Positions 13,160 through 52,017 of a stretch of DNA of 64,000 nt are shown piece by piece. Location: positions 64,001 to 128,000 of the forward strand of contig OZ244197.1 of the NCBI GenBank assembly GCA_965216785.1, in the 5' to 3' direction. Both the position numbers and the translations under genes were made by a program. The stretch is from Thermodesulfobacteriota bacterium (GTDB taxonomy: Bacteria > Desulfobacterota_D > UBA1144 > Nemesobacterales > UBA2774). A model generated the notes under the pieces. That model was given only the letters and a program-made list of their open reading frames with translations. It did no database searches and was not told the DNA's origin. The first letter of the stretch is position 1, and each line of letters begins with the position of its first letter.

Positions 13160-13207
13160 TGGTCGGGGTGGCCGGACTTGAACCGGCGGCCTCTGCGTCC
13201 CGAACGC
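13160..13207 (-). repeat. Displaced 3' half of tRNA-Pro (outer att site of element A)
   Basis: 48 bp identical to 33273-33320 and 45803-45850. Confidence 0.95.
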
Positions 13208-13323
13208 GTAGGGACAAAAAGTCCTAAACGTTTGATATAACTATAAGTTCCTGAATATATTCGAATAAAAGAGATTAACCACAATTCTAATATATCGATT
13301 GTTTAGAATGTTTTGATTTAGTA

Positions 13324-13343
13324 TAGACACCTATTTGGACACC
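13324..13343 (+). repeat. Integrase arm-type repeat, element A left end
   Basis: TAGACACCTATTTGGACACC, matched by TGGACACCTATTTAGACACC at 33183-33202. Confidence 0.7.
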
Positions 13344-13480
13344 TAATCGACTGAATATGCAGAGTGGGTCAAACCTCACCAAACATAGCGCCGACAACTA
13401 TTATTGATTGGTATATCTTTGGTTCAATGTTTATGCTTGGCATCTTTGCATTTATACATGCTTAATTTTATCTCAATCGA

Positions 13481-14437
13481 CTATTTCTTATTTACCTGTA
13501 GAAACCCGATATTTTGGTGCTTATCAAAAGACATAATGATATTATCAATATCATATTTGGGAATATCGCTCGTACAATCTAACAATTCAAACTGATCACG
13601 ACCAATGAGTTCCCAATCCATAAAGCTTTCCATATAACCTATTTCTCTCATTTCTGGTAGAACATTTGTAATTAATAGCACACCTTGCGGCGATAGTTTC
13701 TGAAATAGTTTGTGAGTAAGCTTTTGTGCTGTTCTTTGTTTCAAATAATCATATAACCCTGAAGCATAAATTAAGTCATATCCTGAATGCTTGAAATTGT
13801 TTCTCAAAATATCGACAACAGAGACAGCACTAGCCTGGACACTACTACCAGAGTAATTTCTGTTCACGTAGTTAACACTTTCTATGTCCTGGTCTATTGC
13901 AGTGTATTCTTCTATTTCATCATTTCTAAAAGATTCAGATAGTTCAATCTCTCTTAGATGACCGCACCCTATCGACAGAACTTTTGTCTTATCGGTAGCA
14001 CGGGCAACGCTGTCTATGACTCTAGCAATATATTGCCTCCGAAGGCGTACGGAATCACATGCAGTCGTATTGAAAGTGTATTCTCGGATTTCGTTACCGA
14101 GTTCGTTAACACCATCAAAATTCACACTTGGATGTCCATATATCATATCCAATAGGTATGCATCTCCAGCATATCCCCTGGGCTTATTGTAAGCCCTCTC
14201 TGTTATAGGGTCTTGATATATAAATTCTTTTATAGGATGGTCCATTAGATAATTCCCTACGATATATTTCCACTCACCTACAGAGCAATTTAGCTTTAGA
14301 TGTCTTAACCCGGCGTAAAAATTATCTAGCGCCTCAGTAATTTTACTATTATTTATTTGATTGTATGCTTCCTCTAGTAGACAAGACGTAAAGTCATCAC
14401 TATATATTTTCCGGGCTAAATTATTTTGTGTCATCAT
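13481..14437 (-). CDS. Class I SAM-dependent methyltransferase, PhcB-like
   Basis: KPRGYAGD, VLSIGCGHLRE, DQD, YDLIYASGLYDYL and MESFMDWELIGR motifs. Confidence 0.75.
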   Translation of the reverse strand: MMTQNNLARKIYSDDFTSCLLEEAYNQINNSKITEALDNFYAGLRHLKLNCSVGEWKYIVGNYLMDHPIKEFIYQDPITERAYNKPRGYAGDAYLLDMIYGHPSVNFDGVNELGNEIREYTFNTTACDSVRLRRQYIARVIDSVARATDKTKVLSIGCGHLREIELSESFRNDEIEEYTAIDQDIESVNYVNRNYSGSSVQASAVSVVDILRNNFKHSGYDLIYASGLYDYLKQRTAQKLTHKLFQKLSPQGVLLITNVLPEMREIGYMESFMDWELIGRDQFELLDCTSDIPKYDIDNIIMSFDKHQNIGFLQVNKK

Positions 14438-14469
14438 TCTCTCCTTTTAGATTATGGTTTCAAGTAGCT

Positions 14470-14652
14470 TTATGAGATTTCAATATTTCCAACTACATCC
14501 TTTAACTGTGATCCGTCCTCATGGGTGTATAAAATGTAAAGGGATACTTCTTTCACCCTCTCCTCTTCGGACTCTTCTGAACTTGCGGCATTAGCCGTCT
14601 TCTCCAGAAATGCTTTCACAACTGCTAAATCTGATTGCTCTATTATCATCAT
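14470..14652 (-). CDS. Small hypothetical protein (~60 aa), first gene of the sigma54 operon with the methyltransferase
   Basis: AAGGAGGT RBS before ATG 14652; lies directly downstream of a -24/-12 promoter. Confidence 0.55.
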   Translation of the reverse strand: MMIIEQSDLAVVKAFLEKTANAASSEESEEERVKEVSLYILYTHEDGSQLKDVVGNIEIS

Positions 14653-14689
14653 GACTAAGACCTCCTTTTTCATTATGTGACTTTATAAA

Positions 14690-14865
14690 TGCAACCGGTA
14701 TGCCAAATATATAACTCTCCTTCATCATTAAGTTTTCTAAATTTCAATCTTGTCGGCATGTAAACTACGTTTACATATCGTAAACTCCGTATACATATCA
14801 GTGATTCACACACACTAACTTATTTAATGATTAAAGAGGCTTACGTTTTTGGCATTCTGATTGCT
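14690..14865. promoter_or_regulatory. Two divergent sigma54 promoters sharing a central tandem enhancer
   Basis: TGGCATACCGGTTGCA (minus, 14690-14705); TGGCATTCTGATTGCT (plus, 14850-14865); TGTAAAC-N3-GTTTACA boxes at 14759-14775 and 14779-14795. Confidence 0.85.
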
Positions 14866-14900
14866 CTTTAAGGATATAGAACTTTAAGGAGGTAGTTAAA

Positions 14901-15695
14901 ATGAGGATATTGATATTTCTGAGTGTTTTATTTAGCGGTTTATACTTTTCACAGGATGTAACTGCCGAGGGTATAGTATTCTGCCAGAGTAAAATCTTTA
15001 AAGTCGTAAGATACAGGGGCGGCGAGCCCGGAAGCTGTAAACGATTTGAAAATGAGATTGTTATAACTACCGAAATCGGTGAGGCTGGACCTCCCGGGCC
15101 TCAGGGACTAGCTGGACCTGCAGGACCTCAAGGTGATCCTGGACCGGATGGACCAGCCGGACCTGAGGGGCCACAAGGACCGGCAGGACCTATGGGAGAT
15201 GTCGGACCGGAGGGCCCACCAGGTGATATAGACCAAGGTCTTTTGGATGATCTTCAGGAACAAATTGATATTCTAGCAAGTAAGGCATGTGGAGATGGAG
15301 AATTAGATATAATTTTTGGTGAAGAGTGTGATGATGGAAACGAATTAGACCAAGACAGTTGTTCATCTGATTGCTTAATCACAGGCCCAAGTGGTCCTTT
15401 TTGCGGTAATAGAACAATTGAAGATCCTGAAGTATGTGATGCCGATATAATTCTGACTAGTTGTATAGACTTGGGATTTGTAACAGGAGACCTAAGATGT
15501 TCGGACGACTGCCTATCTTTTGATACATCAGGTTGTCTTGACTCAGTATGCGGCAATAACAACCAGGAAAGTGGTGAAGTTTGTGATGGAACAGATTTGG
15601 TTGGTATAGATTGTACTGACTTTGGATTCACAGGAGGTTCCTTAGCATGCGGTTTTGACTGTGTTAGTTTTAATACATCTAATTGTTCTAATTGA
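14901..15695 (+). CDS. Secreted collagen-like protein with Myxococcus-type cysteine-rich (DUF4215-like) repeats
   Basis: Signal peptide, Gly-X-Y run, [11 protein letters not shown] and two CGN...E.CD...C..LGF..G.L.C repeats. Confidence 0.8.
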
Positions 15696-15783
15696 ATAAA
15701 GATGTCTCTGACGAATTAGGTTGTTTTATCTTGAATCTTTATAATTTATTGTCAATACTAGGTTAATTATGATTTCATAGATT

Positions 15784-18700
15784 TTGAAAGGAGTATGTTC
15801 TTTGGAGTGTTCAGCTTGTAAATCTGCAATCACATCAGGTGAAAAATTCTGCGGCAATTGCGGAAAGAAAGTAGGGGTTGAGTGTCAGAGCTGCGGCAAT
15901 GAAAATCCCCTTAAGAACAAGTTCTGCTCAGAATGCGGCAGCAAACTGAGTAACGGAACTGTATCTAAACCTGAGAGCTTCTCAAAAGATATTCCTGTAC
16001 AGCTTGCCAGAAAGGTGATAGAAGAAAAAGCACATCTTGAAGGCGAGCGTAAACAGATAACGGTCCTATTTGCGGACATATCAAATTTTACAGCATTATC
16101 CGAGAAGCTCGATCCGGAGGACGTAAAGAACCTAGTGGACGGATGCGCCAAGCTTATCATTCAGGATATTTACCACTATGAGGGTACGGTAGACAAATTT
16201 ACAGGCGATGGTGTTATAGCCCTATTCGGCGCTCCAATTTCACTAGAAGATCATGCAGCCCGTGCATTGAGCTCAGCGATTAAAATCCAGGAATCTGTGA
16301 AGGAATACAGCCGTAAAATAAAGAGCGAATTTGGGTATGAATTAGAAATGAGGATCGGGATAAATACAGGGCTCGTTGTGGTGGGGAGTATAGGGAACGA
16401 CCTTAGCATGGATTATACGGCTATGGGCGATACGATTAACCTCACTTCGAGACTCGAATCGTTTGCTGAACCCGGCACAATTCTGGTCAGCGAAAATACT
16501 CAAAGGTTAGTGAGTGACAGATTCAGTTTCGGTCCGGGCGAAGAATACCGAGTAAAAGGAAAAAAATCGGCCGTAACAGCTTACAAGGTATTAGATACGA
16601 AAGAGGATGTAACGCTTCGCGACTTTCAGACTGAAGGTAGACTGACCAGATTCGTCGGGAGAAAAAGAGAGATAAATACCCTCACTGATAGAATCGACCT
16701 GGCAAAGGAAAGCCAGGGGCAGATTATCTCCGTTATAGGGGAGGCTGGACTTGGGAAAACCCGCCTTATCCATGAGCTTAGAGACTTATTAGGAAATGAA
16801 GACCTTAGATGGGTAGAAGGCAAGAGCCTGTCTTATGGCAAGTCGATACCATATTTCCCTATCATTAACCTGCTGAAAAGTTTTTTTAGGATCGAGTCTG
16901 ATTATAGCGAGCGGGTAACTAAAAATAAAATCGAGAAGGAAATCAGAGAGATTGACTCAGATTTATTGTGGACTCTTCCATTCTTATACAGCCTGTTATC
17001 AATCGGCCCCTCCGATAAGAGTATTGAGCAAATGCACGAACGGGAGATAAGGAGGAAGAGCTACGAGGCTGTTAATTCCATCTTCCAGAGACAGAGCAGA
17101 AAGCAGCCGCTACTTTTAGTAGTCGAAAACCTCCACTGGGTGGACAGCGCTTCAGAGGAGCTTATAAATCACATTGTGCACAATATCGCCAGAAGCAGAA
17201 TTATAATACTGGTCTCAACCCGTCCGGGACATTTACATCTGTTTTCCGATAAATCCTACTATACTCAGATAATTCTAAGCCCCCTTTCAGACGCCGATTG
17301 CGAATCTATGATCAAGCAGATCCTGAAAACTCAAGACGTGTCGCGGGACTTACAGGATTTAATTTTGAACAAATGCGAAGGAAACCCATTGTATCTGGAA
17401 GAGGTCGTTAAGGATCTATTAGAGCAGGGCGCTATAAAGGTATCCATGGGAAAAAGCTCTCTCAGTAAAAAGGGCCATGAACTGGCAGTCCCGGGGACGA
17501 TACTTAGTATTATAATGAGCCGGGTGGACAGATTAGATGAGAACCTTAAAAATACGCTCCAGTGCGCCTCCGTGATAGGGAGAGAGTTTTCGTTCCCTCT
17601 ACTGAACGGCATTACAGGCGGCGGCATAGAATTACATGAAGACCTTGAAAAACTGAAAGAACTTGAGCTGATATACGACAAAGGACCCTCACCTGAGCCT
17701 GAATACTTGTTTAAGCACGCGCTCACTCAGGAAGCCACCTACAACAGCCTTCTCTTCGGTAGAAGAAAAGACCTTCACCTATCAATCGGGAAGCTACTCG
17801 AGAACACACATAAAAACAGGCTCGAAGAATATTATGAGACCCTGGCTTACCACTTCTATCACGGTGAAGACGTAGAGAAGTCTTTAGAATATATGACTCT
17901 AGCTGGAGACAAGGCTTTCAGGCTCCACTCTACTAGAGAGGCCATGGAGTTCTACCAAAAAGCTATTGAGCTCATTATTAAGCAGCCTGAAACCGAGGAA
18001 AATAAATCAAAAAGAGCAAACCTTACCATAAAGCTGACAAGGGTGCTCAGATTTTTCGAATCCCCTAAAAATATACTAGAAATGCTCAAAAGCATTGAGG
18101 ATATTGCTGATACACTCGAAGACTATAATCTAAGGTCCAGAATAATGTCTCTGATCGGTTTATTTACTGTGCTATTGGCTAAGAATCAGGAAGCCGGAAT
18201 CCCCTATTGTGAGAAGAGTATCGAGATCGCGAGCACTTTGAAAGATGAAAAAATCACATCACTGGCGTTCTATAGCCTCACAATGGCCTACTATTTTACA
18301 AGAGGAAAAAACGAAGGAGCCGACCTTTTCAAAAAAGCTTACAAAATTTCAAATAATGCCGGAGATTATTTTGAGGCGAGTCATATTCTGCTGCTCCATG
18401 GTATTTCACTTTGGCATTGGGGAGACTATGAGAAAGCCCAACAATACATAAAGAATTCTCGGGACTACGCTGAAAAAAGAAAAGCTCCTACAATGGCTGC
18501 ACACAGTTATTGCGCACATGGGGGTTACGGGGTGTTTTATGGAAACTTCACACAAAACTACGTCGACGACTGTAAAAAAGCGATGCAAATGTTTAAAGAA
18601 TTAGACGACGTGTACTACTATCTTATAGTTTCAGGCTGTTACTGGTACGGAGTTTACAAAACGACAGGGAATAAAGAAGCGGTTAAAAATCTCGAGGAGA

Positions 18701-19155
18701 CAATAAAGAAAAAAGAAGAAAATGATATGTGGATATGGCAGCCGATGCTTTATTCATATTTAGCTGAAGCATACTGTGATTTAGGTATTGAAAGGGAAGC
18801 GCTCGCATCATGTAAAAAATCGATAGAAATAGCAGAGGGAGCCGGGAACAAATTAGAAGCAGGCAGAGGCAGGATCGCCTTAGGAAAATATTATATAGAT
18901 AAACAAAATCGAGACTTGAAAAAGGCGGAAGTGAGTTTTAAAGAAAGTGTTGAAAACTTTGATGTTATTGAAGCAAATTCGGGCCTTTGTATGAGTTATT
19001 TCAATCTCGGTGCACTTTATAAAGAACAGAAAAACTATAAAGAAGCAAAAGCTTATCTTTCTAAAACTATACCGATGGCTAAAAAAGCGGGGTTATGGTG
19101 GTATTTACGGAGCTCAGAACTCCTCTTAAACGATATAAAGGAAAGCACATCATAA
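15784..19155 (+). CDS. Double zinc ribbon - class III adenylyl cyclase - STAND NTPase - TPR protein
   Basis: CxxC x4; VLFADI, DKFTGDG, TAMGDTINLTSRL; FVGR, GEAGLGKT, ENLHWVD, GNPLYL; TPR-like tail (start may be TTG 15802). Confidence 0.9.
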   Translation: MKGVCSLECSACKSAITSGEKFCGNCGKKVGVECQSCGNENPLKNKFCSECGSKLSNGTVSKPESFSKDIPVQLARKVIEEKAHLEGERKQITVLFADISNFTALSEKLDPEDVKNLVDGCAKLIIQDIYHYEGTVDKFTGDGVIALFGAPISLEDHAARALSSAIKIQESVKEYSRKIKSEFGYELEMRIGINTGLVVVGSIGNDLSMDYTAMGDTINLTSRLESFAEPGTILVSENTQRLVSDRFSFGPGEEYRVKGKKSAVTAYKVLDTKEDVTLRDFQTEGRLTRFVGRKREINTLTDRIDLAKESQGQIISVIGEAGLGKTRLIHELRDLLGNEDLRWVEGKSLSYGKSIPYFPIINLLKSFFRIESDYSERVTKNKIEKEIREIDSDLLWTLPFLYSLLSIGPSDKSIEQMHEREIRRKSYEAVNSIFQRQSRKQPLLLVVENLHWVDSASEELINHIVHNIARSRIIILVSTRPGHLHLFSDKSYYTQIILSPLSDADCESMIKQILKTQDVSRDLQDLILNKCEGNPLYLEEVVKDLLEQGAIKVSMGKSSLSKKGHELAVPGTILSIIMSRVDRLDENLKNTLQCASVIGREFSFPLLNGITGGGIELHEDLEKLKELELIYDKGPSPEPEYLFKHALTQEATYNSLLFGRRKDLHLSIGKLLENTHKNRLEEYYETLAYHFYHGEDVEKSLEYMTLAGDKAFRLHSTREAMEFYQKAIELIIKQPETEENKSKRANLTIKLTRVLRFFESPKNILEMLKSIEDIADTLEDYNLRSRIMSLIGLFTVLLAKNQEAGIPYCEKSIEIASTLKDEKITSLAFYSLTMAYYFTRGKNEGADLFKKAYKISNNAGDYFEASHILLLHGISLWHWGDYEKAQQYIKNSRDYAEKRKAPTMAAHSYCAHGGYGVFYGNFTQNYVDDCKKAMQMFKELDDVYYYLIVSGCYWYGVYKTTGNKEAVKNLEETIKKKEENDMWIWQPMLYSYLAEAYCDLGIEREALASCKKSIEIAEGAGNKLEAGRGRIALGKYYIDKQNRDLKKAEVSFKESVENFDVIEANSGLCMSYFNLGALYKEQKNYKEAKAYLSKTIPMAKKAGLWWYLRSSELLLNDIKESTS

Positions 19156-19187
19156 TTGACAATTTACTCATGGATAGAAGGTGAACT

Positions 19188-19937
19188 ATGGCATTTGAAG
19201 AAATAGAGAATAAAGTTGTTCTAATAACAGGGGGCTCGGAAGGTATAGGATTTGGGATTGCAAGAACTTTCGTCAATGCCGGTGCTAGAGTAGCTATCAC
19301 AGGACGAAATATAAATAAATTGGACAAAGCCAAAGAGCTTCTTGGAAATGATGTATTTTCGATTAATGCAGATGTTGCTCAAACCGAAAATTCCGCTGCC
19401 ACTATTGAGAGAGTTGTCAGCGAATTTGGGAGATTGGACATACTAATTAACAACGCCGGAGAGGGGAATCAAAAACCGTTATCTAAATGCGATATTAACG
19501 ACTATGACTTTGTTTTTAATACGAACGTAAGGGGGTTATTCGCTCTGACTCAGGCCGCAACCCCTGAGCTTAAAAAAACAAGTGGGAATATCATAATAAT
19601 AGCTTCGTCACTCGGTTTAAGACCGGCGCCCATGTACGGGGTCTATTCGGCTTCCAAAGCAGCTGTTATCATGTTCGCTCAGATGTGGGCTAAGGAACTT
19701 GCTCCGGACGTAAGAGTCAATTCGATAAGCCCCGGCGGTGTAGATACACCGTTATGGGACAAGCTGGTTGGTAAGGAAAAAAAGGAAGATGTTCTCAGCT
19801 TTGTCAAAGAACGTCATCTGGTAAAAAAGCTCGGCAGCCCGGATGAGATCGGAGGAGCGGCTCTTTACCTTGCTACTGAAGACTGGGTAACCGGAAGTAA
19901 TTTGGTGATAGACGGCGGTCTTTTCTATTCGATATGA
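19188..19937 (+). CDS. Short-chain dehydrogenase/reductase
   Basis: TGGSEGIG, NNAG and YSASK motifs. Confidence 0.92.
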   Translation: MAFEEIENKVVLITGGSEGIGFGIARTFVNAGARVAITGRNINKLDKAKELLGNDVFSINADVAQTENSAATIERVVSEFGRLDILINNAGEGNQKPLSKCDINDYDFVFNTNVRGLFALTQAATPELKKTSGNIIIIASSLGLRPAPMYGVYSASKAAVIMFAQMWAKELAPDVRVNSISPGGVDTPLWDKLVGKEKKEDVLSFVKERHLVKKLGSPDEIGGAALYLATEDWVTGSNLVIDGGLFYSI

Positions 19938-20097
19938 CTCTAAAATTCACGAATTAGAATCCCAAATTAGCTTCACTTTTCTTCAACTGTAAACATCCAT
20001 TACAGTTAAAATAACTATTTTCTGTTGTTAAGTTCCTTAAATCTCCCAAATTTTAAGTATATATTCAAATTCCAAGATTCACCCTCCTGGCAATCTC

Positions 20098-20170
20098 TGT
20101 AAGCAGGGTTGACACTTCTGTCAAATTATTCAATGTTTTCAGATGTTTAGAATTTGGCACACTGCTTGCA
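20098..20170 (+). promoter_or_regulatory. sigma54 promoter with enhancer box
   Basis: TGGCACACTGCTTGCA (20155-20170); TGTAAGC-AGG-GTTGACA (20098-20114); a further box at 19988-20004. Confidence 0.8.
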
Positions 20171-20207
20171 AAAATATTAAATCAAAAATCACTTGGAGGT
20201 GATCGAT

Positions 20208-20549
20208 ATGATAGTAGTTCAGATTATTAACTTTAACTTAAGCGGTATGAGTGAGACGGAGTATGAGCAGACCTGTGATAATTTAGCCGGCTCATTCGCT
20301 GAGGTTCCAGGACTTCTGGCCAAATACTGGCTATCTGACCGGGCCAATAACAGTTACGGCGGGGTGTATTTATGGGAAGACCGTACGTCGCTTGAGCGTT
20401 TTACCCGCTCAGAGCTTTTTAATAGTGTTGCCACTCATCCCAATCTGGTAAACATCTCTTCACAGGTATTCGATGTGCTGGAGGGCCCTACCCGAGTTAC
20501 AAGGGGCTTTGACGCTGTAAGCGCAATTGAAAAAGCCCGTGCGGTTTAA
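20208..20549 (+). CDS. YdhR-family putative monooxygenase
   Basis: VPGLLAKYWL...YGGVYLWED motif; GGAGGT RBS. Confidence 0.8.
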   Translation: MIVVQIINFNLSGMSETEYEQTCDNLAGSFAEVPGLLAKYWLSDRANNSYGGVYLWEDRTSLERFTRSELFNSVATHPNLVNISSQVFDVLEGPTRVTRGFDAVSAIEKARAV

Positions 20550-20576
20550 GTACAAAAAACTCAAGGAGGTGTACAA

Positions 20577-20852
20577 ATGAAATTTATAGCGGTCCATCCA
20601 CTAAATAGTCCTATAAGAGAGGACCAGATTACCGACGCAGCCAGAGCGTGCAGGGCGGAGAACAGTAACAACGCCTGCTGGATAGACAGCTGGACCCAGC
20701 TTAACGACGAAGGAGAGATCACAGTTATCTATTGTCAGTACGACGCAAAGGACGCAGAATCCGTAGCAGATCTTCTTAAAAAGGGAGCACCAGACCTTCC
20801 GGTCGAGGGTATATACCTTATGGGTAAGCTCGAAGCAGAAAATTACAGGTAA
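20577..20852 (+). CDS. DUF4242/SCO4226-like small protein
   Basis: W..SW....G....YCQYDA pattern; paralog of 23707-23988. Confidence 0.6.
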   Translation: MKFIAVHPLNSPIREDQITDAARACRAENSNNACWIDSWTQLNDEGEITVIYCQYDAKDAESVADLLKKGAPDLPVEGIYLMGKLEAENYR

Positions 20853-20861
20853 AAACAGTTC

Positions 20862-20892
20862 GGGCGTTAGGTACGTATTGTATCCAACGCCC
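20862..20892 (+). terminator. Hairpin after the DUF4242 gene
   Basis: GGGCGTTAGGTAC...GTATCCAACGCCC. Confidence 0.5.
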
Positions 20893-20963
20893 TTATACCT
20901 GGGCGAGAAAGTGTCTTGAATTAAGAAAATCTAAAGTGATATAATGTCTTAGGGGAGGTTGAC

Positions 20964-30234: not shown

Positions 30235-30245
30235 TAAATGGTCTA

Positions 30246-42098: not shown

Positions 42099-43346
42099 AT
42101 GGGAATAGAATGGAATAAAAATTATAATGAGCAACAAATTAAAGTTTTATTAGAAGAAGTGCAAAAAATAAGTTTGAGTCCACTTACACTTGGTATAAAT
42201 TCAGTTATTTGTTCAGCTTTAAAATTCAATGATGAAATTTTTCGTGAAAAAGCTGAAGAACTTGTCATCACTGCAATAAATAATATTGGTAGGAGAAATA
42301 TTAATAGAAATAACATTTTAGTTGAATTGGATAAGTTACAAGGGGAATATATTAGAAAGGCAAAAAAGAATTATCATATAGCCACAAGTATTTCTCTTGC
42401 TACTCAGGACAATATTAATAGTATAAAATGCGATAATGTAAAATTTGATTTCTACAAAACATTCCCTAAGAAATACAAAAGGCAAGCATACTTAAATGAT
42501 AAAAAGCATATTATTAATAGTGTGCTACAAAATCCAAATATCCCTAATAACTACTCGCCTATTATCATTAAAGTTAGAGCTAGAACAGGAGTAGAAGCGG
42601 GTAAAATAGCCTTAGATTACTTAGATTTCATTATTGGAATCTGGAATTTCGCACTGAATTTTCCCAAAGGCCCTACTATGCATTTCAAAGAAATTAAACA
42701 AAATCCAATTAATACAGTACTAAAAGGGCCAATCCATACTATTCACAAACAAAACGGTGATATAGATAATGAAGATTTATTTTTTTATGAAGATGACTAT
42801 TATGGACCGATTCAACCTACTTATATTAATAGTAGGAAATTTCAAGAGATAAAAAATACCGAAATGAGAATTAGGAGACGTCTATCGATTAATAAGAAGT
42901 GGGGTTTAAAAATCAGAGACTCTCTAATTAGATACTCGAGAGCACTTGAAAATTATAATTACTCATATTGTTTCTTGCAACTTTGGAATATTCTGGAATT
43001 TCTTACACGTGCAGAAGAAATAGGAAATCATACAATTACTGTTAAAAAAACAGGGAATTTATTCCATAAAGACGAAGCCGAAATACAAAGAGCTTTGATA
43101 GATTTCCTAAGAATTACCAGAAATTCATTAGTACATTCAAGTCAATTCCAATCAGGTGTAAAAAAGATGGACATCACACATCAGCTCAAATTTTATGTTG
43201 AAGAATTAATCCGGTATCACTATGCAGCAATTAAAATTTTTGATAATTTTAATCAAGCTCTCAATTATTTAGATTTGCCGTATGACGAAAAAGAGATTAA
43301 AAGTAGATTAAAAGTCTTAAAGGTATTTTCTAAAAATAGATTGTGA
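42099..43346 (+). CDS. ApeA-like HEPN-domain protein
   Basis: YSRAL...FLQLWNILE and RNSLVH (R-x4-H). Confidence 0.65.
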   Translation: MGIEWNKNYNEQQIKVLLEEVQKISLSPLTLGINSVICSALKFNDEIFREKAEELVITAINNIGRRNINRNNILVELDKLQGEYIRKAKKNYHIATSISLATQDNINSIKCDNVKFDFYKTFPKKYKRQAYLNDKKHIINSVLQNPNIPNNYSPIIIKVRARTGVEAGKIALDYLDFIIGIWNFALNFPKGPTMHFKEIKQNPINTVLKGPIHTIHKQNGDIDNEDLFFYEDDYYGPIQPTYINSRKFQEIKNTEMRIRRRLSINKKWGLKIRDSLIRYSRALENYNYSYCFLQLWNILEFLTRAEEIGNHTITVKKTGNLFHKDEAEIQRALIDFLRITRNSLVHSSQFQSGVKKMDITHQLKFYVEELIRYHYAAIKIFDNFNQALNYLDLPYDEKEIKSRLKVLKVFSKNRL

Positions 43347-43649
43347 CCTGTATACTGCTCCTCTTTTGTTAAGCCCAGTTATAGTTGGAATTATTAAGAA
43401 TGCGAATGCTTCCTAGCTATTATGACAAGCTCCTGCATAGGGTTTTCTGTAAAAAATCTAACTTAACTTATGGTCCTACTAAGGAGGGTGGCAGGTCAGG
43501 GGTTTGACAATAAAGCCTATAGACTATGTATCTGTTTCTAAGTAATTTTTTAGAAGCAATGAGAAAATGAGAAGAGTCATTCTGTATATAGTATTATTTT
43601 TTTGTAATCTAGCTTAAACAAATGAATAAAGCCTATGTTTATTAGGTTA

Positions 43650-44266
43650 TTACTGGCAATACTTCTTGATTAAATCATAGGCATCCATATACCCTAGCTC
43701 ACCCGCTTTAGACAGGTCTAGACAGCCAGAATCTTTTTGACCTAGATTTATTTTAGCACCAGCTCTGTTGTAGTATGCCAGTGCACCTTTAGGGTCTAAC
43801 TCAATAGCCACGTTACAGTCTTGTATCGCTCCTCTGTTATCACCTAGATTTATTTTAGCACACACATTCTAGAGTAATCGTTAGCAGCCAGAGCATCAAA
43901 ATTAGGATTAAGTTCAATAGCTTTTTTACAATCCTGTATTACTCCCAAATCGTCACCTAAACCTGATTTGGAAATAGCCCTAATTTGATAAGCTAACATC
44001 AGGAATAAATTATAGTAATCAGTAATATTAGGATATGGATAATCTATTATTATTTGCTCAACAATATCAATCGCTTTGTTGCAGTTTTGTATTGCTCCTC
44101 TGTAATCTTTTTTTAGAGACATTCTTATTGCACTATTCCTTAAACGTGTGGCCTAGATTTCTTTGTCCCGCACCTCTTCTCTTATTATCTGGAATTGTTC
44201 AATAGTCTCGGCAAGAGCTAACTCAAGTGTTATCAATATCAATAAAAGAAGGATTGATTGTCTCAT
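43650..44266 (-). pseudogene. Disrupted secreted TPR paralog
   Basis: ATG 44266 with signal peptide; in-frame TAG at 44153-44155; frameshift in a (TG)n run near 43860-43868; GCLDLSKAGELG...YCQ cap. Confidence 0.8.
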
Positions 44267-44448
44267 ACTTATCCCATTATATTATTTTCTCTCTTAATTG
44301 TTATCCCACAGTCTTCTCTGGTTCTCTCTAGCATCCGCTCTGCTTCTGTGGACAGCTCCTGATATTTGATAATGTACTGCCCCCCATAATAGGTCCATAA
44401 GTAAAGTTTGGTTTTAGAAAAATGGAGCGGTACAAAAACTGATGTGCG

Positions 44449-44486
44449 TTGACTATGTTAGAATATGTAAGTATAATATACTTACA
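44449..44486 (+). promoter_or_regulatory. sigma70 promoter with overlapping palindromic operator
   Basis: TTGACT-17-TATAAT; perfect inverted repeat TGTAAGTATA-A-TATACTTACA (44466-44486). Confidence 0.7.
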
Positions 44487-44699
44487 GTGACAGCAAAAAG
44501 ATTAAGAACTAAAATGTTTCAGGTTTGGCTGCATCCGAAAGAGTATGAGTTTCTAAATACATATGCCAAAGAAAATATGATGACAGCGTCCGAGATAGTA
44601 CGCGGATGGATACACGAAGTCATGAAACGGGAAGGGCTTGTGATTAAGGAGCCTTCTCTTCCGGAGCTCTCAAAAACTAAAAAGGGGGTTAAGAATTAA
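44487..44699 (+). CDS. Ribbon-helix-helix (CopG-like) regulator coupled to the integrase
   Basis: KMFQVWL..KEYEFL..YAKE..MTASEIVRGWI; its stop overlaps the int ATG. Confidence 0.65.
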   Translation: MTAKRLRTKMFQVWLHPKEYEFLNTYAKENMMTASEIVRGWIHEVMKREGLVIKEPSLPELSKTKKGVKN

Positions 44700-45772
44700 T
44701 GGGGAGTGTATATCTGAGAGGTAATTCATATGTAGGCCAGTATAGAGATAGGGGCAGAATAGTACAGAAGACATTAGGGAAAAAAGGGGTAATTACAAAA
44801 ACAGCAGCTCGGGCAATTCTAGCGAAGCTGGAGGAAGCAGTCATGCTGAAGAAATACGACTTGCTCGATGCCGATATTCCCACCTTGAATGAATTTGCAA
44901 GTGAATATATTAAACATGGCAAAGAAGTATTAAAGAAGAGGTCATGGGAACGTGACATATATGGATTAAGACAGTTCAAAGAACACTATGGCAATCGCTT
45001 ACTTTCTGAAATAACATCTAGGAACATAGATGATTTCAAGAAGATTAGACTTAAAGCTGTCTCAACTGGTACTGTGAACAGGGAGCTACAATGTATTAGA
45101 AGTCTCTTCAATCTAGCTAAACGTTGGAAAAGATTTTTTGGTAATAACCCAGTTAGCGAAGCCAGACTTATACAGGTTAATAACCAAAAAGAGCGCATAC
45201 TTTCAAAGGAAGAAGAGGATAGACTTCTGGCACTCTCTAATCCTTACCTCAAGCCGATTCTGATTACAGCTTTAAACACTGGTATGAGGAAAAATGAGAT
45301 ACTTACCCTAAAGTGGACAAATATTGACCGAGATACTAGTGTGATAACACTGGAACATACCAATACTAAAACTAAAACAACTAGGCGGATACCTATAAAC
45401 TCCGTTCTTAGAAAGCTATTATTAGAGCAAATGCTTAAGTCAGGTGGTAATGAATTTATTTTTCTTAACCCGACGGGTAATCCATATAAACGACATGACT
45501 CAATTAAAGGAGCATTCGAAAGACTTTGTAAAAAGGCTGGTGTAACAGGACTCCGTTTCCATGACCTTAGGCATACCGCTGCGACTAGAATGATAGAAGC
45601 AGGAGCGTCTATTGTGGCCGTGAGTAAAATTCTTGGACACTCAGATATTAAAATGACTATGCGTTATACACATCCCGATACTTCCCTAAAAGAAGCCGTA
45701 GAATTGCTGACAAAACCTATTATTTCCGAGCCAACTACTGACATATCCACTGACAATGAAGAAATGGGTTAA
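44699..45772 (+). CDS. int: Tyrosine integrase of element B
   Basis: GMRKNE, HDLRH, LGH and RYTH catalytic residues. Confidence 0.95.
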   Translation: MGSVYLRGNSYVGQYRDRGRIVQKTLGKKGVITKTAARAILAKLEEAVMLKKYDLLDADIPTLNEFASEYIKHGKEVLKKRSWERDIYGLRQFKEHYGNRLLSEITSRNIDDFKKIRLKAVSTGTVNRELQCIRSLFNLAKRWKRFFGNNPVSEARLIQVNNQKERILSKEEEDRLLALSNPYLKPILITALNTGMRKNEILTLKWTNIDRDTSVITLEHTNTKTKTTRRIPINSVLRKLLLEQMLKSGGNEFIFLNPTGNPYKRHDSIKGAFERLCKKAGVTGLRFHDLRHTAATRMIEAGASIVAVSKILGHSDIKMTMRYTHPDTSLKEAVELLTKPIISEPTTDISTDNEEMG

Positions 45773-45802
45773 TGTGCTCCGAACGAAAGTGCCCGTAAAA
45801 AG

Positions 45803-45880
45803 TGGTCGGGGTGGCCGGACTTGAACCGGCGGCCTCTGCGTCCCGAACGCAACGCTCTAGCCAATCTGAGCTACACCCCG
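45803..45880 (-). tRNA. tRNA-Pro(CGG), intact, CCA encoded
   Basis: CGGGGTG TAGCTCAG...GCGTT CGG GACGC...GGTTCAAGTCC...CACCCCG ACCA cloverleaf. Confidence 0.97.
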
Positions 45881-46553
45881 TATTAAAGACTCAATATTTT
45901 ACCTAGTAAACATGACTTTTCTAGGCCAATTAAGACTCTATAGTTAGACAATGGTAAGACACCATAACCTACTATATTTCCTATGTAAGTATCTATTATA
46001 ACATAATATTCTCTATAAAGATAGTACTAGACACTACTAGAACTAGACTCATTTGAGTACATATTTGACTTGGCTAGTCAATAAGTTTCCTTTAATCTTC
46101 TACTATATTTAGAGGTAAGAGAATAGTGTCTCAGAGTGTTATAAACACTCATAATAGTAGGACTAATGGACTCTATATGACTATATGGTAATAATGGTGC
46201 TAGTCATAGTCTACAGTTGTACTCATAGAGCAATATTGGCTACTATAGACCCCCCTAGAAGACCCATAGGGGTACCTCTACACCACACAATATTCCAGCA
46301 TAGTACTCTTATGTGACCCCCATGATAATGAGGCTAGCTAAGTCCCCCACACACATATAAAATTATCAATAGACCCAGCTAGAAACATATATGACAATAT
46401 GCTCTTTTACTGTTCCCATAGTAAACATGAGAGCAGTTGGGCTTATGAATAGTACCAATAAATAATCCAACTTAAACTATGGAACTAATACCAACATCCG
46501 AACAATGACGATAATAGCTATTTTCGCTGCAGTCTTTCATTATTTTGACACTC

Positions 46554-46745
46554 TCAATCGATTGAAAAACAGTAACCAGATGGTTCAAAGTTCTTCTTGC
46601 CACATACACAACCAGAACCGCACATTGAGTGAGAAAAACACTTACCGGTAAAGCAGATACCAGCGAAGCAAGGCTTTGTCATATACACATAACCGGATAC
46701 TGCAACTGCTATTATAAAAACTCCAATCAAAATATATTTAATCAT
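46554..46745 (-). CDS. Small secreted Cys-rich, knottin-like peptide
   Basis: GGAGGT RBS, hydrophobic leader, C-x4-C-x5-C-x3-C-x-C-x10-C. Confidence 0.65.
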   Translation of the reverse strand: MIKYILIGVFIIAVAVSGYVYMTKPCFAGICFTGKCFSHSMCGSGCVCGKKNFEPSGYCFSID

Positions 46746-47375
46746 TATGCACCTCCATTTATAAGTGTTAAAGCCTACAATAGCCTATTATACATATATC
46801 TCCGTTTTCCAGAAAGCTGTATACTTTGATATACCAACTCAGCCTTTAGGAATATTCTCTTATAACTAGTTGATTTAGCCGTCTCCGACCTGTTATCCAA
46901 TTCTGTCAACTTGCATAAAAAAACTAATAATATCTTTATATTACGTATCCATGTCCACTATACGAGGGTCTAGTACTTATATTAAATATTGACCCTAGAA
47001 AATTACCAGTGATGAGTATTACGTAACTTACTCATATCACTGCATATTATCATTTAGGCACATCTATAATTTGCACTATGAGTCATTTACTGAGAAATAG
47101 TTGCTATAGACCTACAGAGATAATGGTTCAATTGAGACCTATCCACCCCATATCCAAGTGGATAAACTGTCACAAACACTAATACATAGTATATACTTTC
47201 TATTGTATAAATACTACAAATTACCTATTGACATTTGATAGATTATCAGGTTCAATGGTTTTTAACAAGACGTAGAATTATAGACCTAAACATAAATCAA
47301 GATAATCCAATGATAATAGTATCTTAGACCATGGTTTCGCAGATAGATCAATCTATGGCTCTGGAGTGATTAATA

Positions 47376-49643
47376 ATGAATGAATTAGAACTCAGTAGGA
47401 TAGATGATTCCAAGTACAATAGTGTAATAACCCCAGTAAAACGTGAAAAGAAGATACATGAGAACCCACTTATAATAGGATTTGATGCTAACTTATATCC
47501 TTATAAAGGAATGTTTCAGTATCTATCTCTGTCTTTCCATGTTGATGGGGAAACCAGAAGGTACTTTGCCAACGATATATATTATCCTTATAACACACCG
47601 CATACATGCAACGGTAAATACACTATAAAACTTCTTTCAGATTATATCTTTCATTTCCTTTCTGAACTTAAAATTGAATATGATTCAGACTGCATTTACC
47701 TCATAACCCATAATGCAAATGATGAATTAAGCCATTTTGATATATCTAAGAACTACAAACTAAAACCTATAGGTAAGGGTTTATGTTTAGAAGGCACAAT
47801 TAATAACACACTTCTAAATAAAGATCTCAAGCTCAGAATAATTGATATTTATAGCCTTATAAATAAAAGTCTCAAAGATATAGGCAATTATATAGGTATA
47901 CATAGAGTCACATGTAATGAGTTGTTTGAAAGACTTAAGGAATTGAGATTTGAGAATTTAGACATAAGCCAATTATTTGATGACGATATATTCGGGAATG
48001 ACTGCTTAATGGATGCTGAAATAACTTTTGAGGCATTCACGAGACTCAGGTTATTCTTTGTAGAAAATCATAATGTAGACATGCTCAACTTCTATTCACT
48101 CCCCTCACTAGCTGGATACATATTCCAGAGAGATCATATTAATAAACCAACTGTAAGATCAAAAACTATTAAAGAGGCTAGGAAGCAAAAGAAAACTCTT
48201 TCAGATGGTGATGAAAAATATTACGATGTTCCTCAGAAAAAAGAGATATTCAATGGTGATCTTAATGTTAGAAAATGTTCCATGTTGGCCTATCATGGAG
48301 CAAGGATAGAAACTTTCTGCAGAGGCCGGTTTGAAGACAAAAGACTCATATATTACGATGTAGATTCTCTATATCCTTCATCTTCCATACTACAGCCATT
48401 ACCAGTGGCTAATACTAGATGGGTTAACTACAATAAAAGAAACGCTGAAAAGTTTCTTAACCAAGCTGAGGGTTTCGTCGAGGTAGAGTTTAGCTATTCA
48501 CCTGAAACATTTTATCCATGCCTGCCTGTGTCTGGTCTAAGGGATAATATTCTATATTTCCCCCTATCTGGAATAACTTACTGCACTATTTCTGAGCTTA
48601 GAATGGCTATTAAGCTAGGTCTCAGTGATTATATGATTCTTTCAGGTTATTGTTTCTATCCTACCAAAAGAGAAAAGCAACACCCCCTAGCCAGCTTCAT
48701 GAATGACATGCTTGAGAGGAAGCAAAATTCTGAGAAGGGAAGTCTTGAATATATCATGTATAAAATGCAAATGAACTCCCTTGTTGGCAAGCTGGTACAA
48801 AGGGATAAGAACAATGAGACATTAGGAATGTTACATGAAGGCAGTATTTCCAGGGATGTATATGGGAGGGTTGATAATTATAGGAAAGCCAAGGTCGGTT
48901 CTCTGTGGTATCCGGAATGGGCTTCTCTAATTTTAGGAAAAGCTAGAGCCTTAATGTCTGAATTTATATGTAAGGGCACATATTTTATCTCCTCTGATTC
49001 CGTATTGTTACCAAAAGACATAGATATAAATTGTGATTCACTGGACGAATTAAGAAGTGTAGGAAGCAATCTCAGGAAAGAACATGATGTTGACCATGGA
49101 CTAATCATAAGAGCTAGATTGTATGCTCTAAATCCTCTAAATGAAAACCCTAGGCAAAGACATTTAGCTAGGCATGCTGTATCGTGTAAACCTGAAGAGT
49201 TTCGGAATATTATGATCGAGGGATATAAGACTAGAAACATTCCTGACATGTCGTTCACTTCTAAGAAAGCTGTTAAGTATGAAAAATCCATACTAGAAGG
49301 AAAACATTTAAACTCTATGGAAAAGAAGGAATCCAGTATTGAAATAAAATGGGATGGAAAGAGAAGACTATTTAAGGAAGTGGAGAATCCATTCTGTGAC
49401 TTTAGTTGGAGTAGAGCACTAGATGCCAAGGAAGTAGAAAACAATGATATGAGAAGACCTCCTAAACTGAAACCTGGAAGAAAGCAAGGTAAGAAGCTCG
49501 ATACTCCAAAGAAAAGGGACATTGTTAGACTATATAAGGAAGGCAAGAAACAAAAAGAAATAGCTAAGGAATTGGGTATATCCAAAGGATATGTAAGTAA
49601 GGTGTTCAAAGAATTTAATTTGAGTTATCGGGACTTGAACTAA
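47376..49643 (+). CDS. Family B DNA polymerase, piPolB-like, with C-terminal HTH
   Basis: YHGAR.E, DVDSLYP, P.LPV...LYFPL.G, KxxxNSLVGK.VQ, SSDS, WDGKRR; C-terminal KQKEIAKELGISKGYVSK. Confidence 0.85.
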   Translation: MNELELSRIDDSKYNSVITPVKREKKIHENPLIIGFDANLYPYKGMFQYLSLSFHVDGETRRYFANDIYYPYNTPHTCNGKYTIKLLSDYIFHFLSELKIEYDSDCIYLITHNANDELSHFDISKNYKLKPIGKGLCLEGTINNTLLNKDLKLRIIDIYSLINKSLKDIGNYIGIHRVTCNELFERLKELRFENLDISQLFDDDIFGNDCLMDAEITFEAFTRLRLFFVENHNVDMLNFYSLPSLAGYIFQRDHINKPTVRSKTIKEARKQKKTLSDGDEKYYDVPQKKEIFNGDLNVRKCSMLAYHGARIETFCRGRFEDKRLIYYDVDSLYPSSSILQPLPVANTRWVNYNKRNAEKFLNQAEGFVEVEFSYSPETFYPCLPVSGLRDNILYFPLSGITYCTISELRMAIKLGLSDYMILSGYCFYPTKREKQHPLASFMNDMLERKQNSEKGSLEYIMYKMQMNSLVGKLVQRDKNNETLGMLHEGSISRDVYGRVDNYRKAKVGSLWYPEWASLILGKARALMSEFICKGTYFISSDSVLLPKDIDINCDSLDELRSVGSNLRKEHDVDHGLIIRARLYALNPLNENPRQRHLARHAVSCKPEEFRNIMIEGYKTRNIPDMSFTSKKAVKYEKSILEGKHLNSMEKKESSIEIKWDGKRRLFKEVENPFCDFSWSRALDAKEVENNDMRRPPKLKPGRKQGKKLDTPKKRDIVRLYKEGKKQKEIAKELGISKGYVSKVFKEFNLSYRDLN

Positions 49644-49741
49644 TCACTATTTTATCTTCAATCTATCTTCACAATATGAGTCTAGTATATGTATCTAAAT
49701 ATAAGTTTGAAAAGTAGTGTGAATTTCTATAACTTAATAAT

Positions 49742-50521
49742 ATGATTTGTAAATCGGAACAATGTGGAAAGGAAATACCCAATAACTCAATATATTGCCC
49801 ATCTTGTGGTCATATTGTTGGCAACCAACCGCATAAAGTAATAGATGTAATTTATAGAAGTGGTATTTCAGAATTTAACGAAAATACAAGAATAAATCTA
49901 ATATTTAGTAGACATGATGTAGAGTTCCAAGAAAAACCCAAACTAAGTTTCCTAACAAATAAATTACACGAACCCAAGTATGTACTTTCTATAGATAATA
50001 TTAAAAGTGTCAAATTTTATGGAAGCACGGGAACAACTGCAATTAATACAGCAAACGGTGAAATAGTACTGTCAGAAAGACAATTTAGACTTTATGAAAT
50101 TTTTAGTCAATTATCAAATATTCCTTCAGATACTGTAGATGAGATTAAATCACCTCCATCGGATGCACCAGATTTACTTAAGTTCGTATGTATATCCCTA
50201 ATACTATTATCTCTTTTTGGCCTAAAACGATTCTTTAATAATGTAGGTAAAATTGATTTTAGCGATAATGCAAGTTTTGTATTAGGATTTTTTCTGAGCT
50301 TGCCAACTTTTATTTTGTTGATTCTGTCTTGCTACAAAATATTGCGAGGAAGAAAATGGGCATCATATTGTGCTCAAGTACTACTTGCCTTTTTTATATT
50401 GATAGCTTATCTAGAGTTTAAACTATCCCTTTTGGGAATATTAATAATCATAATCATATCAATTGTAATCTTTTATTTGAATACAAGAAAAGTAAAAGAC
50501 TATCTAAGGGATAAAAACTAA
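49742..50521 (+). CDS. Zinc-ribbon membrane protein
   Basis: N-terminal C..C...CPSCG; four C-terminal TM segments. Confidence 0.7.
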   Translation: MICKSEQCGKEIPNNSIYCPSCGHIVGNQPHKVIDVIYRSGISEFNENTRINLIFSRHDVEFQEKPKLSFLTNKLHEPKYVLSIDNIKSVKFYGSTGTTAINTANGEIVLSERQFRLYEIFSQLSNIPSDTVDEIKSPPSDAPDLLKFVCISLILLSLFGLKRFFNNVGKIDFSDNASFVLGFFLSLPTFILLILSCYKILRGRKWASYCAQVLLAFFILIAYLEFKLSLLGILIIIIISIVIFYLNTRKVKDYLRDKN

Positions 50522-50545
50522 TTAAGCCTGTTTGTTATGGATTGA

Positions 50546-50731
50546 CCTAAATTTTATAAGTCCTTACAGTTCGCTAATTCAGTTAGAGCTAAATATCCTG
50601 AAGCATACTTCCGTAGGGGTATAGAACGAATAAGCATCAGTCAGATAGAAACTAGCTGTCTAGATCTCTCAAAATCAGGTGAATTAGGATTTTTCCAAAC
50701 CTGCGATTATATAAAAGAAATATGCCAATAA
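50546..50731 (+). pseudogene. Remnant of the TPR-family C-terminal cap
   Basis: Start-less frame KYPEAYFRRG...SCLDLSKSGELGFFQTCDYIKEICQ*, homologous to the TPR caps in element B. Confidence 0.7.
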
Positions 50732-50744
50732 TCAAAACTACATT

Positions 50745-51788
50745 TCACTCTCTTTTATTTAGCCAGGGCAATCTAGACACGGTCTTTTTCTTATAATCGT
50801 TTGACACATGAGAGTAAATCATAGTAGTAGAAATACTAGAATGTCCGAGTAGTTCCTTAATAGAAACTAGGTCAACCTGATTCATGACTAAATGTGATGC
50901 AAAAGTATGTCTTACTGAGTGAGGGGTAGCTTTTATTCCGGCTTTAGAACATGCTTTATTGAAGCTGTTCTTAATACTCGTAACCCTAGAACCATCAGGG
51001 TGACAGATTAGATAGTTTTTCTGGTCAGCATGTCTAATTGAGACCTGCATTGATTTGGGATGTACATAGTACTTACTCAACCATTCTAACATTTCACTTA
51101 ACTCATAATTGATAGGAACTATCCTGTAGTTGCTAGTCTTCTGACTTTTCACTATGATCACATTATTCTCCAGGTCTATATCAGTGAATTTAAGCTGTAA
51201 TACCTCTCCTATCCTCATGCCGGTATTCCTTAGAACTATTATTATAGGTCTGAGCCATGCACTAGAGCACTCTAATAGACGCTGAACTTCTTCAATAGAT
51301 AGAAAGTTAGGTGGTCTTTTTGGTAGCTTTAAAATAGTAATATGAGGCACTTTTTCAATAAAGTTCCACTCTAATGCCTTTTTTAGTATGGCACTAAGAA
51401 CTGTAAGTTCTCTATTGAGACTAGAAGGAGCCAACCCTTGATCTATTCTGATAGATTTATAATCCTCAATGCATTTATTATCTATCTTCGCTAGACTCAA
51501 ATTACCAAATGAAATCTTGAGATGTTTGATGGCCTGAATTTCTCTTTTATATGTGGATTTCGCCTTATTGGTTTTACAATATTTCAGGTATTGATCTATA
51601 TAGTCATAAAAGAGTATTTCTTTAGTCTCTCTAATGTCTAACCTACCCTTTATATGTTCCAGTTCCAATTGCTTTAGAATCTTTCTGGCTTCCTTCTTAT
51701 CTACTCTCCCAATTCTAATCCACTTCTTCTTTCTATTAATACTGAATACGGCATAATAAGAATTATGTTTGTATGCTAATGAAGCCAT
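50745..51788 (-). CDS. int: Tyrosine integrase of element C
   Basis: GMRIGE, HSVRH, LGH and IYSH catalytic residues. Confidence 0.95.
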   Translation of the reverse strand: MASLAYKHNSYYAVFSINRKKKWIRIGRVDKKEARKILKQLELEHIKGRLDIRETKEILFYDYIDQYLKYCKTNKAKSTYKREIQAIKHLKISFGNLSLAKIDNKCIEDYKSIRIDQGLAPSSLNRELTVLSAILKKALEWNFIEKVPHITILKLPKRPPNFLSIEEVQRLLECSSAWLRPIIIVLRNTGMRIGEVLQLKFTDIDLENNVIIVKSQKTSNYRIVPINYELSEMLEWLSKYYVHPKSMQVSIRHADQKNYLICHPDGSRVTSIKNSFNKACSKAGIKATPHSVRHTFASHLVMNQVDLVSIKELLGHSSISTTMIYSHVSNDYKKKTVSRLPWLNKRE

Positions 51789-51970
51789 AGCATGCCTCCT
51801 GAAGTTGATTCACAGGAAGGTCCTTCAGTAGATGGTGGGTTTTAACATTATCTGGTAAGTCTAGGGCTGTTTGGTTAGAACATGGTTAGACAGCCTTGGC
51901 CTTAACTGGACTAGGAACCATATAACATATTGTACTTACTAGGTATTTTAGGTGGGTCTAAGGTGGTATA

Positions 51971-52017
51971 CTCTGCGTCCCGAACGCAACGCTCTAGCCA
52001 ATCTGAGCTACACCCCG
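51971..52017 (-). repeat. Displaced 5' half of tRNA-Pro behind its probable native promoter
   Basis: 47 bp identical to 45834-45880; upstream TTGCAA-16-TAAATT on the minus strand. Confidence 0.93.

Follow-up and report, generated by a model that had tools for sequence, protein, structure and literature searches.

We examined a 64,000-nucleotide stretch of DNA from a Thermodesulfobacteriota bacterium (contig OZ244197.1, positions 64,001 to 128,000), hereafter the window. Three unrelated islands, elements A, B and C, occupy the genome's only tRNA-Pro(CGG) gene; two lie behind the gene and one in front. This two-sided stack is a rare mix of two known insertion modes. We are highly confident that three unrelated integrase-bearing elements are stacked at this one gene. 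They likely entered as circles. The proposed route is lambda-type recombination within the anticodon arm, with A and B each replacing the tRNA 3' half and C the 5' half and the promoter. The one intact gene is thus likely assembled from island DNA and likely expressed from C.

The sole tRNA called by ARAGORN in the window is tRNA-Pro(CGG). It is the single copy of its kind among 49 tRNA calls in the 3.12-Mb single-contig genome. Pieces of the gene bound each element as follows.

13160-13207, minus strand: displaced 3' half of tRNA-Pro(CGG), nucleotides 31-78, probably native, the outer attachment (att) site of A, with its core at 13191-13207 (sequence identity; a host-type Na/Pi transporter and a sigma-70 gene lie beyond).
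13208-33272, unstranded: element A, 20.1 kb, G+C content 0.39, 3'-restoring, with sigma-54-regulated cargo and a satellite-like core (att halves, arm repeats).
33273-33320, minus strand: 3' half, nucleotides 31-78, probably A-derived, at the A/B junction (sequence identity, arm repeats).
33321-45802, unstranded: element B, 12.5 kb, G+C content 0.36, 3'-restoring, with a helicase, TPR genes and hypothetical genes (att halves, arm repeats).
45803-45880, minus strand: intact tRNA-Pro(CGG), 5' half probably from C and 3' half probably from B (ARAGORN, flanks, arm repeats).
45881-51970, unstranded: element C, 6.1 kb, G+C content 0.34, 5'-restoring, with intC, polB, a 259-residue zinc-ribbon membrane protein and a 63-residue Cys-rich open reading frame (ORF) (att halves, arm repeats).
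51971-52017, minus strand: orphan 5' half, nucleotides 1-47, probably native (sequence identity, promoter-like motif upstream).

An earlier note on this DNA had placed 3' halves at 13160, 33273 and 45803, and 5' halves ending at 45880 and 52017. Our comparison agrees base for base. The segments 13160-13207 and 33273-33320 match tRNA nucleotides 31-78 at 100% identity, and 51971-52017 matches nucleotides 1-47 at 100% identity. A 17-mer core occurs exactly four times in the window (starts 13191, 33304, 45834 and 51971) and had 0 matches in 100 shuffles. Beyond the core, the 5' copy at 51971 has 0 exact bases in common with those at 13191 and 33304. Hence, these 17 nucleotides are the entire sequence common to all four copies, as the note had held of this anticodon-arm segment. 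The two element-side 3' halves have six additional bases in common past CCA, giving a 54-bp repeat. Given this layout, one intact tRNA gene would remain after any of the six core-to-core deletions. Composite circles would join the arms of different integrases.

Each element encodes a tyrosine integrase (PF00589; 32183-33370, 44699-45772 and 50745-51788). The catalytic motifs R, H-x-x-R, H and Y are present in all three, and pairwise identity between IntA, IntB and IntC is 29-34%. Each element also has its own short direct repeat at both ends, 97-156 nucleotides from the core. We take these repeats to be arm-type binding sites, after the lambda model; binding is predicted.

32183-33370, plus strand: IntA, tyrosine integrase, with a frame that continues through the antisense 3' half (PF00589, catalytic motifs).
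44699-45772, plus strand: IntB, tyrosine integrase, convergent on the intact tRNA (PF00589, catalytic motifs).
50745-51788, minus strand: IntC, tyrosine integrase, starting just past the orphan 5' half (PF00589, catalytic motifs).
13325-13342, plus strand: arm-type repeat of A, 12-bp period, partner of 33184-33201 (three window matches at no more than 4 mismatches, two being A's pair).
33184-33201, plus strand: arm-type repeat of A, within the end of intA (direct repeat).
33460-33478, plus strand: arm-type repeat of B, partner of 45737-45755 (only two window matches at no more than 4 mismatches).
45737-45755, plus strand: arm-type repeat of B, within the end of intB (direct repeat).
45943-45959, minus strand: arm-type repeat of C, 11-bp period, 97 nucleotides from the anticodon (direct repeat; the C motif has six window matches at no more than 4 mismatches).
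51874-51890, minus strand: arm-type repeat of C, 92 nucleotides from the anticodon (direct repeat).

At the sequence level, arm-type direct repeats flank the core on both sides, as in lambda-type heterobivalent systems. Because the repeats are element-specific, they fix the element boundaries and pair each integrase with its own ends. Hence, we predict that each integrase works on the element that encodes it. That three different elements surround one tRNA-Pro, as the note proposed, is borne out by these repeats. Its proposal that three integrases recombine in the anticodon arm fits the three intact enzymes, and the crossover would lie somewhere within the 17-nucleotide core. The arrangement also has the features of Islander-type tDNA islands. 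End fragments are in the same orientation as the tRNA, with the 5' fragment upstream and the 3' fragments downstream. Every member has a tyrosine integrase, all lengths are inside 2-200 kb, and empty sites occur in relatives of other species.

The intA frame has no stop before the tRNA 3' half. The predicted C-terminus varies with the state of the att site (385, 392, 395 or 397 residues). We considered that this tail might be a conserved att-state switch. This was rejected, since none of 30 related integrases adjoining an intact tRNA reads into it. For the same reason, intA has probably lost its stop codon.

The tRNA halves are identical in sequence, so their provenance must be judged from their flanks. 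Relatives are given below by our genome (G) and locus (L) labels. Empty sites, with AKR/OmpA - tRNA - sigma70/recG synteny, were found in G011, G014, G012, G008 and G002. In G011 and G014 the gap from AKR to the tRNA is below 200 nucleotides, and that from the tRNA to sigma70 is about 900 nucleotides. The empty-site relatives that the note had called for thus exist in other species; among the genomes there was no empty strain of the window's species. A family promoter-like motif, composed after its sequences had been seen, is present in 32 of the 55 distinct regions that lie ahead of a tRNA-Pro(CGG) piece. One of these is in G001, of the same genus as the window. In the window, the motif precedes the orphan 5' half and not the intact gene. 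The two upstream regions are described below.

52027-52055, minus strand: family-conserved promoter-like motif, now facing the orphan 5' half and intC (conservation; missed by a consensus scan).
45896-45923, minus strand: predicted element-borne promoter for the intact tRNA, a weak sigma-70 match at 9 of 12 positions (segment conserved in four other loci).

The motif upstream of 52017, together with empty-site synteny, indicates that the outer halves are native. This agrees with the note, which put the native halves about 39 kb apart (13160 and 52017); the outer halves span 38,857 bases. Similarly, the intact gene has C sequence upstream and B sequence downstream. The flanks therefore favour the note's view that a C-derived 5' half is joined to a B-side 3' half, with provenance deduced because the halves are identical. 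The intact gene is likely transcribed from C's promoter. As for the order of events, that of A and B is not determinable, since either order yields the same product.

Two further features were noted upstream. NHL beta-propeller repeat genes (53551-57112) lie just upstream of the native promoter and were not seen at the locus in the relatives examined. The C-type upstream segment (window 45915-45940) resembles a tRNA D-arm. In G002 (L033:11330-11341), a 12-nucleotide exact match to tRNA nucleotides 9-20 lies about 40-50 nucleotides upstream of the gene. Such likeness could be due to chance or to a fossil 5' half within the promoter.

Several results weigh against the entry of three elements as circles and transcription from C. 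A sigma-70 consensus scan found 2 sites where 2.2 were expected by chance, and the match upstream of the intact gene is at chance level. Hence, the consensus scan alone gives no evidence for a C promoter. No excisionase was found among the ORFs scanned, a set that left out most ORFs below 90 residues. We also used Logan contigs (k=31) of six runs, all from a single sample that is probably the source of the window and hence not an independent one, compared over 12500-32400 and 33000-52900. In these contigs there was no joint between cores and no hybrid B-C junction; since contigs lose rare forms, this counts neither for nor against excision. Nor was any excised circle, or any empty site of the window's strain, seen in them. 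Such contigs cannot display excision of a single element; the repeats exceed 31 nucleotides, so no new 31-mers arise. Loose contig ends at 45803 and 33273 were considered as signs of excision and rejected, because they are the 13160 copy aligned on its repeats.

A possible, if somewhat doubtful, alternative accepts the layout as described and holds that the elements are now fixed relics. The intact tRNA would be poorly expressed or dispensable and nothing would depend on the C promoter. Consistent with this, A, B, C and the flanks have similar depth in the Logan contigs, and intA seems to have lost its stop. Furthermore, in G003, G018 and G021 (95-98% complete) the contiguous OmpA-sigma70 interval has no tRNA-Pro(CGG) and no match to its anticodon-arm pattern, and in G017 the copies are degenerate. 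One account, in its accessible part, states that Pro(UGG) alone is essential in E. coli (PMC9643105). Conversely, the repeats are all 100% identical, the arms and integrase motifs are intact, and CCG makes up 31% of proline codons in long ORFs. A relic state would alter the consequence of the stack and not its origin. It is thus compatible with stacked insertion of three elements. Given tRNA loss in three relatives and the essentiality of Pro(UGG) alone in E. coli, host dependence on C's promoter is probably mild. The notion of a host held hostage by C is weakened by the same losses, and by the fact that any core-to-core deletion restores the gene. As a separate observation, a second, near full-length tRNA-Pro(CGG)-like copy lies 1.4 kb downstream in some relatives (L122:11485-11562; L040:6183-6254 and 7678-7751); both copies are degenerate in G017.

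A second alternative is that C does not restore the 5' side. Here, the intact tRNA would keep its native 5' half and upstream region, and 51971-52017 would be foreign. G002, of the same genus, lends this some support: C-type sequence immediately precedes its tRNA, and no element is visible there. Against it, G001 and the orphan half both carry the family-wide motif. L114 and L122, whose flanking genes are only 63-67% identical to the window's, likewise have the C-type segment. This segment abuts an IntC arm site, and its patchy spread fits a mobile origin. Hence, a foreign 51971-52017 copy is very unlikely and largely refuted.

The note had named misassembly at the tRNA repeats among the findings that would overturn its reading. 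Unitig depths, taken from Logan contigs of the same sample, fit the assembled repeat copies. The 48-nucleotide 3'-half unitig has about three times the flank depth (819 versus 275-293 in run X4), and a 43-nucleotide unitig, read as the bridge from core to 5' half, is at about single depth (270). These copy numbers argue against misassembly. That the repeat order and number are an assembly artefact, or that free circles of A, B and C were collapsed onto the tRNA, is most improbable: no one contig covers the full stretch and unitigs break at the repeats, yet the repeats are only 47-54 bp long, depths give three copies of the 3' half and one of each element, arm sites on the junction sides match the adjoining element, and the genome is one contig.

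Elements in G022, G013, G066 and G005 carry a near copy of the host's own promoter (about 35-90 nucleotides). In G022, G013 and G066 the arm is further out, at -159 to -177. Together, these features suggest that host DNA was captured between arm and core. C's non-host segment also precedes the tRNA in G002 (and metagenome loci L124 and L136), L122, L138 and L114, with alignment scores of 55-90 against a shuffled maximum of 34. We then scored upstream regions with an arm matrix built from 7 of 18 IntC-side arm sites, chosen for likeness to C's. It exceeded 15 bits in 9 of 55 tRNA-Pro(CGG) upstream regions. Five of the nine are known or likely element ends (the window, G022, G013, G066 and L114) and the L131 contig is too short. 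The remaining three are G012, L125 and the 5' fragment of G028.

Element-type promoters or arm sites persist at tRNA-Pro sites with no remaining element. In G002, L122, G012 and L125 neither an integrase nor a 5' fragment separates the tRNA from a host anchor gene upstream. In G028, the 5' fragment that follows the arm has been split by a new element. These five sites are likely attR scars, at which the promoter would have stayed with the host. Two points count against scars: G002 and L122 have no convincing arm site, and G012 and L125 have no C-type promoter. Elsewhere, a divergent tRNA-Pro(CGG) in G009 (L162:991-1183; 90%) has an IntC-type arm site about 116 nucleotides upstream. The genus g2 sites seen either carry an IntC-type arm or lack the tRNA.

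The two-sided arrangement is less exceptional than first held. It recurs in G005 as a full stack at tRNA-Arg(CCT), in the order 5' fragment, IntC-like gene, intact tRNA, IntB-like gene and 3' fragment. Other 5' fragments of tRNA-Pro(CGG), with an integrase or its relic, occur in G022, G013, G028, G036 and G066. In L114, 301 bp upstream are 72% identical to C's end and a decayed IntB-like island lies downstream. L114 and G013 look like decayed two-sided sites. The window genome itself has four 5' fragments and nine 3' fragments, each of at least 40 nucleotides. With one stray tRNA-Thr piece dropped, the 5' share is 4/12, compared to 4% for Islander (p = 0.001). One of the four, at tRNA-Leu(CAA), has no integrase in view.

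The other 5'-fragment islands of this genome are at C1 1322020 (Leu-CAA), 1598985 (Ser-TGA) and 1825190 (Arg-CCT). In the latter two, the integrase ends just before the intact tRNA. A tRNA-Thr(CGT) 3' fragment is inverted inside the tRNA-Ser island (C1 1606810-1606858), 1 Mb from the tRNA-Thr gene. In L143 (G019:C96:10000-29999), there are two integrases, one ending immediately ahead of a tRNA-Arg(TCT) 5' fragment and the other ahead of the intact gene. L143 probably holds two 5'-restoring elements in tandem.

To place these cases, we collected integrases from part of the matches of an IntC search of 120 class genomes and from tRNA-Pro loci; this sample is biased and its rows are related. Six of 60 integrase ORFs in the fetched loci had no tRNA piece within 500 nucleotides and were dropped, leaving 54. 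Of these, 16 appear to be 5'-restoring, 10 with the fragment seen and six by geometry only (one relabelled by hand). A quick tree of all 54 rows has 10 polarity changes (at least eight forced; shuffled mean 14). A careful tree of 19 IntC-family rows has five (at least three forced), and a single 5' clade was rejected (approximately unbiased test, p-AU 4e-5, LG+G4). Apart from G028, the nearest relatives of IntC are in 3'-restoring elements at tRNA-Thr(CGT). Measured from the anticodon, their arms lie at +89 and -99 to -101, compared to +92 and -97 in C. Since relatives of opposite polarity have near-equal arm distances, polarity seems to have changed within a fixed arm spacing. By this sampling, 5'-restoring islands are common in the class (16/54) and their polarity has flipped repeatedly.

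The three elements differ in content. C, B and the core of A are low in G+C (0.34-0.36 versus 0.46 for the genome). Other annotated genes are as follows.

29290-30234: replication initiator in the A core.
30368-31218: two small-terminase-like genes in the A core.
37700-39241: DnaB-N/AAA_25 helicase in B.
47376-49643, plus strand: family B DNA polymerase (PolB) of C, with a phi29/His1-like fold and a C-terminal helix-turn-helix (HTH) (PF03175, structure model).

The A cargo (13481-27617) encodes sigma-54 activators, a cyclase-STAND-TPR protein, an SDR, a luciferase-like monooxygenase and a collagen-repeat protein. The gene for the 1123-residue cyclase has matches in 0 of 20 same-family genomes at E no greater than 1e-150, and was found in one of 33 other genomes searched. 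The TPR genes of B (33644-34462, 41029-41835 and 43647-44122) have signal-peptide-like N-termini and recur in other islands of the genome and class. Judged from genes alone, the integrase, initiator and small-terminase-like genes of the A core, with the helicase of B, resemble what we take to be the gene set of PICI-like phage satellites; this is a likeness only. The Cys-rich ORF of C (46554-46745) has a hydrophobic N-terminus and a weak lantibiotic-family match far under the cut-off. It also adjoins polB in the G011 and G005 elements (41-46%).

The C polymerase matches PF03175 and has 41 relatives among our matches; relatives also turn up under the record titles Bathyarchaeota, Myxococcus and Methanobacterium. 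Within the class, 6 of 120 genomes have the polymerase, with an IntC-like gene on the same contig in 6/6. The structure model (predicted local distance difference test, 86.7) is closest to phi29 polymerase among PDB folds (E 4e-14) and to His1 virus polymerase among viral model folds (E 4e-22). A PDB sequence search matched only the HTH. By tblastn, the best matches are protein-primed viral enzymes and small plasmids of Fusobacterium and Bacillus. Across 26 aligned sequences, the aspartate of motif A is invariant. Of the two aspartates of motif C, which reads xS[TSN]DS, the second is conserved and the first is missing throughout. The motif B tyrosine is absent from 26/26. KTRG is found at the KxY position in 0/26, the family being of RxRLY type, and the string occurs elsewhere in one. 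C's enzyme also has no Exo I glutamate.

C has no terminal inverted repeats, the longest inverted match between its ends being 11 nucleotides, and no virion genes were found in it. The window has no Cas1 Pfam match; no terminal protein gene was found, though homology could miss one. The tRNA pattern matched 0 viral contigs. A single-protein PolB scan of genome contigs confirmed 0 of 26 candidates, while an alignment-based scan found 8 of 20, and 1 of 10 in viral contigs. At L113:841-5380, a relative of the polymerase is in a virus-like setting, next to a P-loop ATPase and small genes, and no integrase was seen there. By these sequence comparisons, C belongs to a small family that pairs an integrase with a phi29-like polymerase without the pipolin KTRG motif. 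It is built like a pipolin and fails the piPolB motif test (SxTTDG, KH-X8-KTRG, as defined in PMC5695915).

Both insertion modes, 5'-fragment islands and tandems are already known, and the tRNA is dispensable in relatives. A reversed-orientation element supplying the tRNA 5' half was reportedly described by Zhao and Williams in 2002 (J Bacteriol 184:859). C resembles such an element, as it supplies the 5' half and the restored gene is predicted to be expressed from element DNA.

The archaeal pTN3-like integrases behave likewise, as far as the accessible text describes them (PMC8371274). According to that text, pTN3-like genes use the integrase promoter and the integrase is split. C, by contrast, has a whole integrase at its far end, pointing away, and a separate 62-nucleotide segment from arm to tRNA holds the predicted promoter. 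In their accessible parts, reviews (PMC8371274 among them) describe integration at the 5' side as rare and mention genes expressed from element DNA. Islander lists 159 5'-fragment islands, 125 tandems of at least two and four of at least three among 3,919, in the portion of the paper available (PMC4383910). As in that account, our elements have a tyrosine integrase, an anticodon-centred att site, a displaced fragment, and one integrase and fragment per array member. Unlike there, 5' and 3' members share one gene, an arrangement not described in the available portion. The 5' share is also far higher here (16/54 sampled integrases, 10 with the fragment seen).

C is like the pipolins, as the accessible parts of two papers present them (PMC5695915, PMC11551731), in combining PolB and a tyrosine recombinase with direct repeats at a tRNA, no terminal inverted repeats and no virion genes found. 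The first Asp of motif C is replaced in both (PMC5695915). C differs in having no KTRG, xS[TSN]DS in place of SxTTDG, a motif B without Tyr, a fused C-terminal HTH, and protein-primed sequence and fold neighbours. It also restores the 5' side, whereas 99.8% of delimited pipolins in the same texts are at the 3' end. Like family 1 casposons, in the accessible descriptions (PMC6563490, PMC4779613), C is a chromosomal element with a protein-primed-type PolB. Unlike them, it has no Cas1 and no terminal inverted repeats, and att direct repeats are its integration signature. Our literature search, whose coverage left out supplements and three key papers, found none that deals with promoter scars or with stacks on both sides of a tRNA.

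With its arm sites mapped, the locus offers a clean, naturally occurring system of three integrases on one attB. It poses two questions: what stops stacked integrases from cross-recombining at a shared core, and how attP shifts from a 3' half to a 5' half plus promoter. The polymerase of C is a candidate intermediate between PolBs that are protein-primed and those that are primer-independent. We tentatively propose that integrases of this lineage switch freely between the 3' half and the 5' half plus promoter with arm spacing unchanged, and that promoters of decayed elements permanently rewire host tRNAs. One carrier would be a small-element family whose phi29-like polymerase copies a circle without terminal repeats, with priming unlike that of pipolins. 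The value of the locus lies in a mapped three-integrase site, lineage-wide polarity switching, likely promoter scars and C's polymerase. If the scars are real, the tRNA promoters of this lineage turn over through mobile DNA, a process that annotation would overlook.

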